A stretch of 64,000 nt of DNA, taken from assembly GCA_041601615.1 (NCBI GenBank), contig JBFIHX010000003.1:282007-346006 (forward strand), given 5' to 3'. Under the pieces are notes generated by a model. It had not been told where the DNA came from and ran no database searches. It saw only the letters and a program-made list of their open reading frames with translations. The translations under genes and the position numbers were made by a program. Within the stretch, counting starts at the first letter, position 1, and every line of letters begins with the position of its first letter. The DNA comes from Thermoplasmatota archaeon (GTDB lineage: Archaea; Thermoplasmatota; E2; JACPAO01; JAHFTW01). Below, piece by piece: positions 12,969 to 18,333 of this stretch.

Positions 12969-13051
12969 TAGCTCTTTCTCCCGTACACGCGCCCACCGGA
13001 CCCAAACAGACAGGCAAAGCGGTCAAATAGGGGCGCTATGTGGGCCGCAAC

Positions 13052-13804
13052 ATGGCTCTAGCCCGTGCCCGCCAAGCTGCCCGCCGCGTCAAGGACCGAT
13101 GGAAGTCCAAGCAATGGTACACCATCTCGGCCCCCGCCGCGTTCAACAACCACCTGCTTGGCGAGACCTTCGCCGACGAACCCCAAAAGCTCATCGGCCG
13201 CACCAGCGAAGTCACACTCCAAGACCTCACGGGCGACATGCGCCAAATGCACGTCAAGCTGACCTTCAAAGTCAACGAAGTCAACGACATGCAGGCCAAG
13301 ACTGTCTTCACTGGCCACAACATGACCAGTGACTACGTGCGCCGCCTCACCCGCCGCGGGCACACCAAGATCCCCGCCGTCTTCGACGTCAAGACCAAGG
13401 ACGGCAGCCGCCTCCGTGTCAAGCCGTTCGCCATCACCGACCGCCGCGCCCAAACCGGCGCCGCCCAGGACATCCGCCGCATCATGGTGGAACACATCGA
13501 GAAGGCCGCCAAGGAGAACACCCTCAGCGGATTCCTGAAGCTCGTCCTGATGGGCGAACTCAGCAACACGATCTACAAGGACGCCCGCAAGATTCACCCC
13601 CTGCGCCGCGTCGAGATCGCCAAGACGGAAGTCCTCAGCGCCCCCTCGATCGAAGTCGACGAAACCCCCATCATCGTCGTCGAAGAAGAGGTCGAAGAGA
13701 CGGAAGAGAGCGAGGAAGACCTCGACGCCGGCCTCATCGAGAGCGACTCCGAAGACGAGGAATCCGAAGCTGAATCGGCCGACGACGACTCCGAAGAAGA
13801 GTAA
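13052..13804 (+). CDS. rps3ae: 30S ribosomal protein S3Ae (eS1) with acidic C-terminal tail
   Basis: KDRWKSKQWY, LIGRTSEVTLQDLTGD, DYVRRL, IHPLRRVEIAK. Confidence 0.95.
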   Translation: MALARARQAARRVKDRWKSKQWYTISAPAAFNNHLLGETFADEPQKLIGRTSEVTLQDLTGDMRQMHVKLTFKVNEVNDMQAKTVFTGHNMTSDYVRRLTRRGHTKIPAVFDVKTKDGSRLRVKPFAITDRRAQTGAAQDIRRIMVEHIEKAAKENTLSGFLKLVLMGELSNTIYKDARKIHPLRRVEIAKTEVLSAPSIEVDETPIIVVEEEVEETEESEEDLDAGLIESDSEDEESEAESADDDSEEE

Positions 13805-13920: not shown

Positions 13921-14030
13921 TTTTGCAGCACCCCGCAAGGGGATGCTTTACTGAAACAAGTCTCGTGGGGGCTAGGTGCCCCCGTTTGCGCGCCCCAAAG
14001 GAGCTGAGCCTAACGCCGGGCGCAGTGGGT

Positions 14031-14351
14031 TGCGAGGAGCAGGATGGTTTGCGGAGGCCGAGCGCAGCGAGGTTTCCGTAAACCGAGGGCGCGTAGCGCC
14101 CGGAGACTGCGGCTCGCATTGAGCGCAGCGAAATGCGAGGAGCAGGATGGGAGTGGGGAGCCCGGAGGGCGACCCCGACCTCCTGCGTCTCGCATTCGAG
14201 CGAGCGCAGCGAGAGAGAATGCGAGGAGCAGGATTCGACGATAAGCGAATGCGAGCATTCGCTCATCGATCTCGCTCTCTTCGTTCGCGAGCAAATCCTG
14301 CTCGCGCAAAATGCCCGGTCGGGGACCGGGCATGAATGCGAGGAGCAGGAT
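14031..14351. repeat. Array of four direct copies of the tRNA-Leu 3' end (TGCGAGGAGCAGGAT) separated by unique structured spacers
   Basis: Copies start at 14031, 14134, 14220 and 14337 (the tRNA itself); periods 103, 86 and 117 bp. Confidence 0.9.
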
Positions 14352-14418
14352 TCGAACCTGCGAACCACTAAGGACCAGCCCCTCAAGCTGGCGTCGTTGG
14401 CCGCTTGACTATCCTCGC
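14337..14418 (-). tRNA. tRNA-Leu(GAG)
   Basis: GCGAGGA acceptor, CCAGC-TTGAGGG-GCTGG anticodon arm, variable arm, GGTTCGAATCC. Confidence 0.95.
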
Positions 14419-14681: not shown

Positions 14682-15362
14682 GTGCCGATTGCTTATGTGG
14701 TTCGTCGGCTCGGGCGGGTCGTGCGGTTCGTGGATGGTCGGCTGCTGATGTGGTTGCTCGTGGCGGTGTTTGCTTCGGGTGTGCCCTTGGCGGTTTGGTT
14801 TGATGCGGATGCGACGCGGGCGGTGTCGTTGGTGGAGCGATGGCTGCGGGGGGCGCACGCGGTTTCCACGGCGTTGCTGGTGTTGGGGACTGTGTTGCAC
14901 TTGGTCATGCGGCTTCGGGGGCGCGTGGAGCCGCGGGTGGTCCGGTGGGGCGGTTTGTCGCTGGCGTTTGTGGGCCTTGCTGCGGCGACGGGCGCGCTCG
15001 TGGACCAGACGGGGCACGGGGCGCGAGCGTGGGCACGCCTTGGATTGGATGTGGGTGCGGTTTCGGCGGTTGCTGTGGTGCATGTGGCGTTTGCTTCGGT
15101 GCTGGTGGCGTTGGGCGTGTATGTTCATGTGGCGCGCAAGTCTCGGGTGCGGATTTTTGGCGGTTGGCAAAGTGCTGCGATTTCGTTGGTCCTGGTGGTC
15201 CTCGGCGTCGCGTTGTTGCCGGGCGTGGCTCCGGGTGCCGGTTCTGGGCACATTGCGACGGTTGCCGTGGCGCCGGGCGGCTTTGCGTGGCCGGTGTTGG
15301 TGGGCCTCGTGGTAGCTGTGGGTGCGCGCTGGTTGTCTTCTTGGCGTGGCGGCCTAGCGTAG
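14682..15362 (+). CDS. Divergent cytochrome b N-terminal-like membrane protein (start uncertain)
   Basis: LRGAH..(13)..LH and VVH..(14)..VH His pairs on TM helices. Confidence 0.55.
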   Translation: MPIAYVVRRLGRVVRFVDGRLLMWLLVAVFASGVPLAVWFDADATRAVSLVERWLRGAHAVSTALLVLGTVLHLVMRLRGRVEPRVVRWGGLSLAFVGLAAATGALVDQTGHGARAWARLGLDVGAVSAVAVVHVAFASVLVALGVYVHVARKSRVRIFGGWQSAAISLVLVVLGVALLPGVAPGAGSGHIATVAVAPGGFAWPVLVGLVVAVGARWLSSWRGGLA

Positions 15363-16313
15363 AAAGTGGACGCCTGATTCGTCCACAGTGGCGCGAAGCT
15401 CGCTTGCTTCCCTGGCGAAGTCGCTGGAAAAGGGCGCACTGCGCGCCTCGAAGCGCTGCACCACGTCGAGGAGGGTGATGTTCCAGCCGCCGTCTTGGTG
15501 CGCCGAGGCTTCGATTTGCCAGACGAGGGGGCCGATGCTGGCCATGAGGAATCCGTCGTAGGCGGAGGTCTGCCGAATGGCCGCTACGGCGCCTGTGGAG
15601 CCTGCTGGGAGGTGCCAGGGGTACCATGCGGAGTCGAGAACGGTGTCGCCGCGCATCAAGTCCACGCGTGTGCCCTCGGCTTGTTCGTCCACGACGATCC
15701 ATTCCAATGGGTGTCGCGTGGCGTAGGTGTCGCCGTCGGGGGCCGAGAGAACGCGCACGCCTCCAAGCACCAGTAGGACGAGTACGATTACGGCTCCGGC
15801 TTGCAGCACGCGGGCGTCGCTCCAGTGTCGGCGCCAGCGCAACCACAATACGCCTGCGGCCGGCGGGGCAAGCCACCAAACAATCCAGTAGTACCATTCG
15901 AGACTCCATGGTGTCGGAGAAAGGGGCCAGAAGAGGGGGATGCCGTGGTGCGTGATGCCGTCGAGCAAGAGGTGGCTCCAAGCGCCGAGCAAGAGGGGGC
16001 GCCACGCTCCAGGCCACCAGCGAGCCGCCGAGAGGCTGTTCCAGCGACGCGACAGCCGCCCAAGGAGCCGCACGAACAGCCACGCCGCCACAGGAGCCCC
16101 GAGAAGGCTGTGGCTTGCGCCTCGATGTTGCAACCAGTACAGGGAATCAAAGTACGACAAAGGCGCCACGAATGCGTCTAGGTCCGGCGCGAAGGCCGAG
16201 GCGGCCGCCACGAGGCCGTAGGAGGTCGCGGATGCGTGGCTTGGGCGCCCTAAGGCGGCGAATAAGATGATGCCCGCAGCGTAGCCCAAAAGGACGTGGG
16301 TGAAGACATCCAC
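15354..16313 (-). CDS. Membrane metal-dependent hydrolase (YdjM-like)
   Basis: MDVFTH, APDLD, HRGASHS, SHLLLD, GIPLFWP. Confidence 0.9.
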   Translation of the reverse strand: MDVFTHVLLGYAAGIILFAALGRPSHASATSYGLVAAASAFAPDLDAFVAPLSYFDSLYWLQHRGASHSLLGAPVAAWLFVRLLGRLSRRWNSLSAARWWPGAWRPLLLGAWSHLLLDGITHHGIPLFWPLSPTPWSLEWYYWIVWWLAPPAAGVLWLRWRRHWSDARVLQAGAVIVLVLLVLGGVRVLSAPDGDTYATRHPLEWIVVDEQAEGTRVDLMRGDTVLDSAWYPWHLPAGSTGAVAAIRQTSAYDGFLMASIGPLVWQIEASAHQDGGWNITLLDVVQRFEARSAPFSSDFAREASELRATVDESGVHFLR

Positions 16314-16367
16314 GGACACCGCCAGCGAGCAAGCCGGTTGAGGGTTTGCCGAAGGGGCGGTGCAGAC

Positions 16368-16400
16368 CTACTTCGTAAGCACCGTCTTCACGGCGTCCAG
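16368..16400 (-). repeat. Displaced, recoded copy of the transketolase C-subunit 3' end (LDAVKTVLTK*)
   Basis: 23/33 nt and 8/10 aa identical to 16460-16492 (LDAVRAVLTK*). Confidence 0.8.
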
Positions 16401-16459
16401 CCGCGTGCTGCACTTCGCTTCGCTCGTACCGCTGCGGGCTCGATGGCTCCGTTTGGCCC

Positions 16460-17431
16460 TTACTTCGTAAGGACCGCTCGGACCGCATCGAGCATTTTCG
16501 GTTGATCGACCTCGAAGTGCTGGTACAGTTCCTCGGGGGTGCCGCTGGTGGTGAAGCTGCGCACACCGATGCGGTGCAGCACACCGCCGGTGGCGTGCTC
16601 GGCCATCACTTCGGCAACTGCACTTCCGAGACCGTTGTGGATGAAGTGGTCCTCGGCGGTGACGATGCGACCGGTCTCGTGGGCACACTTGGAAACGAGC
16701 GCCTCGTCGATGGGCTTGATGCTGGCCATGTTGACGACACGGACACTGATGCCCTCGGCTTTGGCTTGCTTGGCCACTTGCAGGCTCTCGTTGACGTGCG
16801 GGCCACTGGCGATGAGGGTGACGTCCTCGCCGTCTTGGACAATCTGGCCCTTGCCCCATTTGAATTCGTAGTCGTCGTCGTGGAACATCGGCACGCCTGC
16901 GCGAGTGCTGCGCATGTAGCAGGGGCCCTTGCGTTCGTACATGGCGTGGACGGCGGAGCGCGCCTCGTTGGCGTCTGCCGGGGACACGACATACATGTTG
17001 GGCAAGGTGCGCATGATTCCGATGTCTTCGAGGCCGTGGGCGCTGCTGCCGTCTTGGCCGGTCATCAGACCACCGTGGCTGCCGCAGAACTTGACGTTGA
17101 GGCCCTGGCGCCCGACGCAGTTGCGGATCTGCTCCCAGCCGCGTTCGAGGAAGACTGCGAAGGTGCTGACGAAGGGCGTCTTGCCCATGTGCGCAAGGCC
17201 GCCGGCGGTGGTGACCATGTCCTGTTCGCTGATGCCCATTTGCACGAAGCGCTCGGGCCATTGGGCTTCGAACCAGTTGCTGCGCGTGCTTCCGGCAAGG
17301 TCCGCGTCGAGGGCGACCACTTCAGGGTGCAAGGCGCCGACTTCCAGGAGGCCGCGTCCGTAGCCGTCGCGGATGGCAACCTTGTCACCTAGTTTCCAGT
17401 TGAATGTCTTCGCGGTGGTGGCGGCTCCCAT
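16460..17431 (-). CDS. Transketolase C-terminal subunit
   Basis: LDADLAGST, GISEQDM, GQDGSSAH, TAEDH..GLG; ATG at 17431 overlaps the upstream stop. Confidence 0.93.
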   Translation of the reverse strand: MGAATTAKTFNWKLGDKVAIRDGYGRGLLEVGALHPEVVALDADLAGSTRSNWFEAQWPERFVQMGISEQDMVTTAGGLAHMGKTPFVSTFAVFLERGWEQIRNCVGRQGLNVKFCGSHGGLMTGQDGSSAHGLEDIGIMRTLPNMYVVSPADANEARSAVHAMYERKGPCYMRSTRAGVPMFHDDDYEFKWGKGQIVQDGEDVTLIASGPHVNESLQVAKQAKAEGISVRVVNMASIKPIDEALVSKCAHETGRIVTAEDHFIHNGLGSAVAEVMAEHATGGVLHRIGVRSFTTSGTPEELYQHFEVDQPKMLDAVRAVLTK

Positions 17432-18333
17432 CAGTCGTCCTCCAGGTTCTTGGGTCCCCATGTTTCGCCGAGTTGGCGCATCGCTTCGACCATTTCGTCG
17501 GTGGTGAGGGAGCGGCCGTGGAAGTCGGCCTGGCCTTCCATGAAGTCTACGCCGTGGCCCTTGTCCGTGTCGAAGACGATGCAAGTGGGTTTGCCCTTCG
17601 TGGCGGCGGCTTCCTTGAAGGCGGCGTCGCAGGCGGCAAGATCGTGGCCGTCGCATTCGATGACATGGAACCCAAAGGCGCGGAACTTGGCACCGACGGG
17701 ATCAACGTTCTTGACTTGGGCGCAGGGGCCATCGATTTGGACCTTGTTCCAGTCCACGAGGACGCAGACGGAATCGAGTTTGTAGTGCGCAGCAGTGAGG
17801 GCAGATTCCCAGATGTTGCCCTCTTGCAGTTCGCCGTCGCCAAGCGTCACGTAGACGCGGCCCTTGTTGCCGTCCATGCGCTTGGCAAGGGCAACACCGT
17901 TGCCATATCCGAGGCCCATGCCGAGGCTGCCTGTGCTCATTTCGATGCCGGGAATCTTGCGGTCTACGTGGCCTTGAAGAAGGCCCCCGAGGCGGCGCAA
18001 GCGACGGAACTCCTTCTTGTCGTAGTAGCCCATTTCGCCGAGCACCGCGTAGATGCCGGGGGCGCAGTGGCCCTTCGAAAGGATGAACACGTCTCGATCT
18101 GGGTCCTTGGCCGCGGCTTGCGCCGGGCTCATGTGCAAGTGGTTGTAGTACAGCACGGACAGGAAGTCGATCATCGAGAACGACCCGCCCGGGTGACCCG
18201 AGCCAGCGTCGAAGATCATGTTCAAGATCGCCACGCGCGACTTGCGCGTCCGCTCTGCCAGTTCTTCTAGAGAGAGCGGCCCCTGTACCGCCGTGGATGC
18301 AGCCACGGAGGCGGCGAGACGGCGTTGTGTCAA
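17431..18333 (-). CDS. Transketolase N-terminal (TPP-binding) subunit; true start probably ~18285
   Basis: SGHPGGS, ILSKGH, TGSLGMG, GDGELQEG. Confidence 0.93.
   Translation of the reverse strand: MTQRRLAASVAASTAVQGPLSLEELAERTRKSRVAILNMIFDAGSGHPGGSFSMIDFLSVLYYNHLHMSPAQAAAKDPDRDVFILSKGHCAPGIYAVLGEMGYYDKKEFRRLRRLGGLLQGHVDRKIPGIEMSTGSLGMGLGYGNGVALAKRMDGNKGRVYVTLGDGELQEGNIWESALTAAHYKLDSVCVLVDWNKVQIDGPCAQVKNVDPVGAKFRAFGFHVIECDGHDLAACDAAFKEAAATKGKPTCIVFDTDKGHGVDFMEGQADFHGRSLTTDEMVEAMRQLGETWGPKNLEDD

Follow-up and report, generated by a model that had tools for sequence, protein, structure and literature searches.

Stacked, silently re-coded gene ends at a transketolase locus and other loci of a Thermoplasmatota genome

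Introduction

Why would the last ten codons and the stop codon of a gene be written out a second time, partly in other codons, a short way behind the first? This question is raised by a transketolase gene in a 64,000-nt stretch of the genome of a Thermoplasmatota archaeon (assembly GCA_041601615.1, contig JBFIHX010000003.1; hereafter the window). The gene encodes the C-terminal subunit of the enzyme. It lies on the minus strand at 16460-17431, where an open reading frame (ORF) with the Pfam domains Transket_pyr (PF02779) and Transketolase_C (PF02780) ends in a TAA stop codon at 16460-16462. Its final residues, LDAVRAVLTK, are re-encoded downstream as LDAVKTVLTK. We find that the pattern recurs at many gene ends in this archaeal family, with no mechanism described for it. 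The explanation that we favour, tentatively and at a little less than an even chance, is an old tandem array of terminus cassettes in which this genome brought a hairpin cassette into use by recombination. Below, G000 is the genome of the window, G001 and G002 are genomes of the same genus, and G006 belongs to another genus.

The two ends of the transketolase gene

The copy in use, cassette B (LDAVRAVLTK and TAA), occupies 16460-16492 of the minus strand, and the displaced copy, cassette A (LDAVKTVLTK and TAG), lies at 16368-16400 of the same strand. Cassette A is offset from B by 92 nt, and hence out of frame, with a spacer of 59 nt between the two. An earlier reading of the letters and ORFs (the sequence-only reading) had reported this second copy, and its coordinates, on the minus strand, and its 10 nt differences in 33 all hold. 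Five of the differences are silent changes in sense codons, one exchanges a stop codon for another, and the remainder give R to K and A to T. Over the last nine codons and the stop, the differences fall 2/1/6 at codon positions 1/2/3. With the stop codons in register the pair has 23/33 matches; with reversed queries as a control, one gene among the 2198 called genes scanned reached 23/33 and none went higher.

Cassette B also forms the 5′ arm of a 56-nt hairpin (16438-16493, minus strand), the 3′ arm of which (16438-16459) repeats the last codons in inverted and imperfect form. Three stems, of 8 bp (outer), 4 bp and 9 bp (inner), lead to a GAA triloop, closed by a C-G pair, that lies just before the stop codon. 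The pairing of the spacer with the in-use copy had been claimed and is as described: alone as DNA the 56 nt fold at -19 kcal/mol (z -5.24), matched by 1 of 200 shuffles, and as RNA within a 171-nt stretch the hairpin has a z of -3.26. The 70-nt fold centred on the stop codon has -36.7 kcal/mol, at the 0.3 percentile among 1485 gene ends. The rest of the spacer is a 37-nt linker (16401-16437, minus strand) with a motif that we call the S-core, GAGCGNAGCGA (core at 16414-16425); the motif as the linker carries it is GAGCGAAGCGA. The GA-GC-GAA-GC-GA motif of the sequence-only reading is real and recurs beside tRNA genes, but a stable hairpin in the linker is not confirmed: by nearest-neighbour energies it is not significantly structured (z +0.72). 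The displaced cassette A has lost most of its own 3′ arm; a remnant is left at 16355-16367 (minus strand), and 16355-16400 fold weakly (-6.4 kcal/mol as DNA, z -0.86). Cassettes of the A type that are in use fold as RNA at -23.3 (G002) and -25.6 kcal/mol (G001). At the gathering score, Rfam matched three tRNAs in the window and nothing else, and at E<=1 eight loci of the terminus-repeat class gave a single chance-level match.

The doubled end could be a plain tandem duplication with a decaying unused copy, or a chimera of two strains made in assembly. The repeat is direct and short-range, as either would have it, and the assembly of one sequencing run (X4) is broken within the displaced cassette, at 16374-16400, into two contigs overlapping by 27 nt. 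In Logan contigs from four runs of one study, however, the junction is unaltered with 0 differences, so it is no one-off chimera, and the objection that would have undone the sequence-only reading fails. Three runs other than X4 bridge the junction; the contig of X3 covers 15900-17011 unbroken, and runs X1 and X2 may be the source of the assembly. Relatives use the other copy, the build recurs in G001, G002 and G006, and the codon-position bias described below rejects neutral decay. We consider duplication with decay, or a chimera, extremely improbable.

Cassette order in relatives

Among the 41 genomes searched, only G002 (96% amino acid identity) and G001 (87%) have this C-terminus in common with G000; in other genera of the family the transketolase C-terminus is different and has no second copy. 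In G002 the parts of G000 are reversed. The KT version is in use and is followed by a near-identical linker; next comes the RA version, whose hairpin matches the G000 copy at 51 of 56 positions. Behind it lie a weakly linker-like stretch, a 31-nt gap exactly at the KT copy of G000, and a downstream flank like that of G000. The sequences correspond by type and not by position: cassette A of G000 has 2 silent differences in 30 nt from the in-use end of G002, and cassette B has 1 silent difference in 30 nt from the unused downstream cassette of G002. The same cassette type as B is unused in G001. There the working end, LSAVREVLTK*, sits in its own hairpin. Behind it come a core hairpin, a hairpin with the second copy, DAVRTVLTK*, one more core hairpin and then a third copy; this A0-core-B-core-C array, of at least three copies, runs off the contig end.

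Which copy changed in G000 is judged from identities alone: the working terminus of G002 is 0.91 identical to the displaced copy of G000 and 0.70 to the in-use copy. The in-use copy of G000 is the hairpin-borne one, and these identities support the displaced copy as the native type, both as the sequence-only reading had it. Between G000 and G002 the gene is 0.78-0.96 identical per 45-nt interval, and the last interval 0.73. A scan of metagenome contigs with the transketolase protein returned 383 relatives, none of the same genus and the best 67-68% identical.

The sequence-only reading explained this layout by a non-autonomous mini-element with a re-coded terminus of its own, which entered an empty transketolase allele and pushed the original end 92 nt downstream. 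The order of parts (re-coded copy in use, hairpin and linker, native-type copy) fits. A fresh insertion of 92 bp at transketolase did not survive the comparison, however. Neither congener has an empty transketolase allele; both hold both copy types, in the other order, which argues against an insertion that simply filled an empty site. Neither the 59-nt spacer nor the 127-nt region occurs elsewhere in the genome; matches are of 12-16 nt only, mostly to the core motif. Since nothing of the spacer but its 12-nt core recurs, the spacer does not qualify as a repeated mobile sequence. The predicted empty alleles that end in the displaced-type copy, absent here in G001 and G002, do exist at three other gene ends, L116, L111 and L114 (see below). 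We regard the mini-element as unlikely.

Repeated gene ends across the genome

A crude calling of G000 genes, based on G+C at the three codon positions, yielded 2224 genes that take up 85% of the genome. For 2198 of them the last 30 nt plus stop were sought 10-400 nt downstream, with reversed queries as the control. At least 22/33 matches were found for 27/2198 genes against 2/2198 controls, and at least 24/33 for 18/2198 against 0/2198; transketolase, at 23, lies just under the latter cut. A peptide-level scan for repeated C-termini, which had been proposed as a check, also returned an excess: the last ten residues are re-encoded at 10, 9 and 8 of 10 positions in 19, 11 and 11 of 10752 open frames, versus 3, 5 and 4 in an upstream control. 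A separate look-up by peptide motif favours peptide-keeping copies and was applied only to copies already located by DNA. The duplicated segments range from 30 to 195 nt and vary in length by locus, unlike a short target-site duplication of fixed length.

In the 18 pairs with at least 24/33 matches the stop is in register in 16, and the codons that differ are silent in 73 cases and replacements in 27. By codon position 1/2/3 the differences number 21/18/80 (P = 4.6e-14 against equal thirds). Against 0.45, our own rough estimate for one neutral and one constrained copy, P = 8e-7. When nine weaker pairs are added, several of them chance-like, 24 diverged pairs give 62/49/107. The bias of the 18 pairs means that the copies were shaped as working gene ends, and it rejects neutral decay of an unused duplicate. 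The earlier claims that both transketolase copies were shaped by selection on the protein, and that the locus is not a simple local duplication, are thus borne out across the class, in line with the 2/1/6 of transketolase itself.

The in-use copies of the class mostly fold strongly across the stop codon (mean -26.3 against a background of -18.8 kcal/mol; n=19 and 1485, P = 6e-6), and the displaced copies are not folded beyond background (-19.1 kcal/mol, P = 0.36). The idea that all genes of this genome end in hairpins was rejected by a genome-wide fold survey, in which gene ends were no more structured than gene interiors (mean -18.8 and -19.2 kcal/mol, n=1485). A census of 3-nt loops on G-U-tolerant 7-bp stems was too noisy for use.

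The class extends to another genus. In the 400 kb of G006 searched, 5/267 genes have at least 22 matches against 0 controls, and 3 of them show the full build by inspection. A minimal pair was seen on contig C3 of G006 (L225-L238), where two stop-codon hairpins 57 nt apart encode the same five residues in different codons with co-varying arms. At another gene end on the same contig an E-like module (see next section) adjoins the second copy.

The S-core and E modules

The S-core has 53 matches in G000, 36 of them intergenic (intergenic DNA is 17% of the genome); the reversed sequence as a control gave 16. Conservation is limited to the 11-nt apex, the stems being local sequence. Twelve of the 36 intergenic copies lie within 70 nt after a same-strand stop codon, versus 2/36 before an opposite-strand stop. 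In 4/36 the core shares its GA with a TGA stop codon, and the last codons follow in inverted form.

A hairpin at the stop codon could be a selected structure of the mRNA 3′ end, acting in termination, stability or the control of translation termination, with the extra copies as by-products. The placement of S-cores behind same-strand stops and within TGA codons agrees with this. So does the covariation of stems: five related terminus hairpins form one common structure, with compensatory double changes in 6/20 pairs. Yet gene ends in general are no more structured than interiors, and no T-run follows 16438, so the G+C-rich hairpin of the transketolase end lacks the T-run of an intrinsic terminator. 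At tRNA-Leu the core is antisense, and structure alone does not explain silent re-coding. We think it quite improbable that mRNA structure is the main explanation; it is compatible with, not opposed to, the array explanation that we favour.

The E module, of about 54 nt, consists of an S-core hairpin and a second hairpin. It was found by profile search, blastn-short being too insensitive for this family. Exact-pattern copies number 11 in G000, 4 in G002 and 0 in 36 other genomes of the order. In a scan of a genome collection for the E pattern, 61 of 65 matches were single, chance-like and bacterial, and the other 4 came from the Thermoplasmatota metagenome-assembled genome G002. At E-module loci the second gene-end copy starts directly after the last base of the module. 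This fixed end speaks for a mini-element, as do the numbers of exact copies. All four E modules of G002 lie, by inspection, at gene ends that have a module in G000 too. The two end copies at such loci are near-identical within a genome and differ between G000 and G002, a pattern that points to gene conversion.

A distinct hairpin family of about 60 nt was also noticed, with the S-core at its apex, conserved arms and about 10 copies, on contigs C1, C4, C5, C16, C21 and C25 (e.g., near C16:3837). It is separate from the terminus hairpins and the E module, and had no Rfam match among the loci scanned. S-core repeats were also seen at contig starts and ends (C9:73, C9:156; C4:235658, C4:235741). 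Together with the X4 break in the displaced cassette, these indicate that the arrays fragment assemblies.

Other gene ends and tRNA genes

At L116, G002 and G001 are empty, and their working ends resemble the displaced copy of G000 at both edges by inspection; over the whole tract, G002 is 0.77 identical to the displaced and 0.68 to the in-use copy, and G001 is 0.76 identical to each. At L114, where G001 has the empty allele, its end is 0.83 identical to the displaced and 0.76 to the in-use copy. At L111, G002 is empty and G001 has three extra DRVTP* copies, and the differences among seven copies are all at third positions. At L112 both G000 and G002 have arrays, and the working end of G002 is of the displaced type (0.94 versus 0.73), a sign of conversion or of a swap. 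Empty alleles in relatives that end in the displaced-type copy are what a mini-element would leave.

An acyl-CoA dehydrogenase gene of G000 ends in an A-B-A array with a 111-nt period, its third copy identical to the first, and G002 has the same array. The unused B cassettes of the two genomes differ at 9/33 nt, with 6/7 changed codons silent; the working copies differ by 2 nt. Cassettes thus differ almost only silently even where neither is in use, which suggests that they did not decay in place and were shaped as real gene ends. A separate observation concerns the middle cassette of this array (L118, G000:C4:110140-111542), in which an S-core with T at the variable position reads Arg-Ala-stop in frame. 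The motif is therefore able to supply the last residues and stop codon of a gene.

The end of nucS (L141, G000:C4:56500-65000) has the same flanks around a larger insert: an E module, a 5.8-kb island, a second copy of E hairpin 2, and a re-coded nucS end copy. The end copies, of about 80 nt, differ only silently by inspection. The island is low in G+C (0.42-0.58) and lies between direct repeats of E hairpin 2 that are 20 nt long. Its genes are for TPR and MarR-type proteins and for two large products without a family. A lower-G+C island within these flanks fits a mini-element. No integrase was found by Pfam in the island or beside it.

Within the window, the tRNA-Leu(gag) gene (14337-14418, minus strand) heads an array at 14020-14418 in which further copies of its 3′-terminal 22 nt lie at 14217, 14131 and 14028. 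Counting the gene's own 3′ end, direct-repeat family D1 has four copies, spaced by 103, 86 and 117 nt; the three others lie downstream of the tRNA gene. Between the 3′-end copies are S-core motifs, antisense to the tRNA, and GNA-triloop hairpins. Elsewhere in G000, E modules were seen in tandem 5′ of tRNA genes (C2:114776-115048, with 3 units of 109 nt, and C14:35615-35746), each unit repeating the first 13-17 nt of the tRNA and its upstream region. Duplication is thus not confined to 3′ ends.

Such piles suggest another origin, in which the arrays are scars of larger, site-specific integrative elements that carry a replacement 3′ end in the attachment site; repeated integration, excision and internal deletion would have stacked the end copies and left short remnants. 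The stacked tRNA-Leu 3′-end copies do resemble the piles of attachment sites known at tRNA genes, and the nucS island has its flanking repeats of E hairpin 2 and re-coded end copies. The genome has 3 matches to tyrosine recombinases. At the three recombinase loci themselves no S-cores were found nearby, except two cores within 15 kb on C16. A precedent exists in icd, e14 and icdC (PMC13626634). Against integration stand the lack of an integrase in or beside the island by Pfam, the linker of just 37 nt at transketolase, the inverted arm that pairs with the in-use copy, which is no feature of an attachment site, and the roughly 20 protein targets, which would require as many element lineages. 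We judge this origin distinctly unlikely.

Enzymes that could move or copy such cassettes were sought in the 93%-complete G000 assembly. The Y1 (HUH) transposase (PF01797) had 0 matches there, the same search being positive as a control in 6/14 reference genomes; the reverse transcriptase family PF00078 had 0 matches, and Cas1 was not found. That none was found in this assembly weighs against a mini-element and favours host recombination and replication. It is also hard to picture how a mini-element would carry a tailored terminus for each of some 20 genes unless it copied from the target.

As for the surroundings of the array, transketolase is split, and the gene of the N-subunit (17431-18333, minus strand) neighbours that of the C-subunit. 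On the other side the array region is bounded by a gene for a YdjM-family membrane protein (15354-16319, minus strand; PF04307), which is also the neighbour in G002. The gene for ribosomal protein S3Ae at 13040-13804 indicates an archaeal setting.

A proposed history of the transketolase array

In the array explanation each cassette would re-encode the last ten codons and the stop codon. Cassette B, fused in frame, would be the working terminus, followed by the 37-nt S-core linker and then by cassette A, the version of the sister species. For the difference between the genomes, a shift of register within an array that is older is the best reading, rather than a fresh insertion of 92 bp. The ancestor would have had the order A-linker-B-linker-A and would be older than the three sampled species of the genus; the acyl-CoA dehydrogenase gene of G000 still has an array with such an A-B-A order. 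The G000 lineage may then have lost the first unit through recombination between similar, non-identical cassettes, which would have brought B into use and swapped the working terminus with the protein length unchanged. G002 would have kept A in use and lost the last unit. Cassettes would further have changed register positions and passed from lineage to lineage, through gene conversion, unequal crossing-over and the import of diverged alleles. Conversion and changes of register can be seen in the sequences themselves; we infer the import from diverged lineages from silent divergence that exceeds that of the gene body and from the empty alleles. The least certain step is the origin. It may have been a fold-back inverted copy, made where a stable mini-hairpin of the GNA-triloop or S-core type stands at the stop codon and accompanied by a long direct duplication of the terminus, with host replication and recombination enzymes and no element-encoded enzyme at work.

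Several points weigh against this history. The three-unit ancestor is reconstructed from three genomes, in one of which the array is cut off where the contig stops, and the linker-like stretch in G002 aligns only weakly. No donor lineage of a cassette has been seen, the metagenome scan having given no further same-genus alleles. Recombination between cassettes just 70% identical should be rare. With an assembly 93% complete, an enzyme may have been missed. A fold-back origin predicts identical copies at birth, so an exchange step is needed for the silent re-coding, and the passage from identical to silently re-coded copies is the weakest link. The similarly flanked 5.8-kb island and the empty alleles elsewhere fit a real mobile element at least as well.

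A broader possibility, which we hold to be doubtful, is that the cassettes are an undescribed kind of mobile DNA: short, self-complementary terminus cassettes that have no enzyme of their own and spread between lineages in this Thermoplasmatota family. If so, they would put a silently re-coded version in place of a gene's final 10-65 codons, or of a tRNA's 3′ end, and would keep older versions stacked behind. The repeated silent re-coding would be the trace of a conflict over gene ends as targets of cleavage or insertion, with the re-coded end immune and the old end kept as a decoy or spare. Were copies exchanged between lineages, this would be horizontal transfer in very short patches, invisible to ordinary gene trees. 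Annotation and evolutionary analysis are affected too: cassette replacement at the gene ends of these genomes looks like a burst of synonymous changes over the last 30-200 nt, and the repeats break assemblies. The 11-nt S-core apex at 36 intergenic sites offers a concrete handle on the underlying factor or process.

Comparison with known systems

The terminus hairpins resemble repetitive extragenic palindromic (REP) sequences and bacterial interspersed mosaic elements (BIMEs), with their REP-associated tyrosine transposase (RAYT), in being short, G+C-rich and placed just past gene ends, with a short motif common to many copies. They differ in that no Y1 (HUH) transposase was found in G000 and only the 11-nt apex is conserved, and we know of no REP that duplicates a coding end. 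Template switching, or quasi-palindrome mutation, can create a hairpin, or improve an existing one, in a single step in which one arm serves as template for the other. It would explain arms complementary to the local coding sequence, but alone gives no direct second copy, no shared apex motif and no silent re-coding. Unexpressed partial copies that stay coding-shaped are known from pilS/pilE of Neisseria, where they donate sequence to the expressed gene. Donor cassettes of that type vary the protein, whereas the terminus cassettes keep the peptide and change only nucleotides. Translational bypass of the T4 gene 60 type would need a take-off codon ahead of a hairpin-borne stop, a landing codon that matches it and a bypassed product; the sequence here has a stop codon in or next to the hairpin apex, with matching codons downstream. 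The multi-copy family with terminal inverted repeats that marks miniature inverted-repeat transposable elements (MITEs) and other derivatives of insertion sequences is not seen, the spacer having no other copy in the genome. Nor are the marks of diversity-generating retroelements: there is no PF00078 match in G000, and the 10 differences between the cassettes include C/G, T/C and G/C, not adenine changes only.

Insertion with long target duplication is a further arrangement to consider, reportedly treated by Nobusato in 2000. Direct repeats of more than 30 bp, of variable length and in some cases overlapping with the 3′ end of a gene, flank the insert there and are single in the empty genome, and mobility genes are lacking (Furuta et al., 2010, PMC2853133). 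The cases described concern restriction-modification genes in bacteria, with near-identical repeats, and no archaeal case survived the screen (PMC2853133). L116 has direct repeats of more than 30 bp around its insert that are single in the empty genome. At transketolase there are repeats of 33 nt at 70% identity, and the same-genus alleles at hand are all arrayed. Compared with those cases, the repeats here are silently re-coded, end at a stop codon and come with hairpin modules.

Phage 21 as well as e14 is found in icd of Escherichia coli. The e14 case is close to ours: working icd extends into the prophage, the native C-terminal end is displaced as a pseudogene, and excision leaves parallel synonymous changes (PMC13626634). 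At transketolase likewise the insert supplies the working 3′ end, the native end is displaced and the differences are mostly silent; in icd, recombination between the two versions gives a working chimera (PMC13626634). By the same account e14 is an element of 15 kb with a recombination system of its own and one target. The transketolase insert has 59 nt between the copies and no integrase was found, and the nucS island lacks one by Pfam. Many genes and a tRNA are hit here, each in-use copy has a complementary arm, and copies are stacked in arrays, in contrast to e14. An empty site in relatives, expected of that type of element, is found at L116, L111 and L114, and not at transketolase.

Neither e14 in icd, nor insertion with long target duplication, REP elements or template switching unites the five features seen here: a miniature insert, an arm that pairs with the coding end, an apex motif common to many copies, silent copies in a stack, and sister species that use different copies. 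No description of this combination was found in the literature consulted, although the supplements of PMC2853133 might list relevant loci. A true mobile element and scars of integrative elements remain live rivals of the array explanation. A few large integrative elements are known to put a silent copy of their own in place of a gene's end. Here such replacement is seen on a miniature scale, at about 1% of called genes and at a tRNA gene, together with a hairpin as part of the build, alternative copies stacked one behind another, and a copy in use that differs between species.

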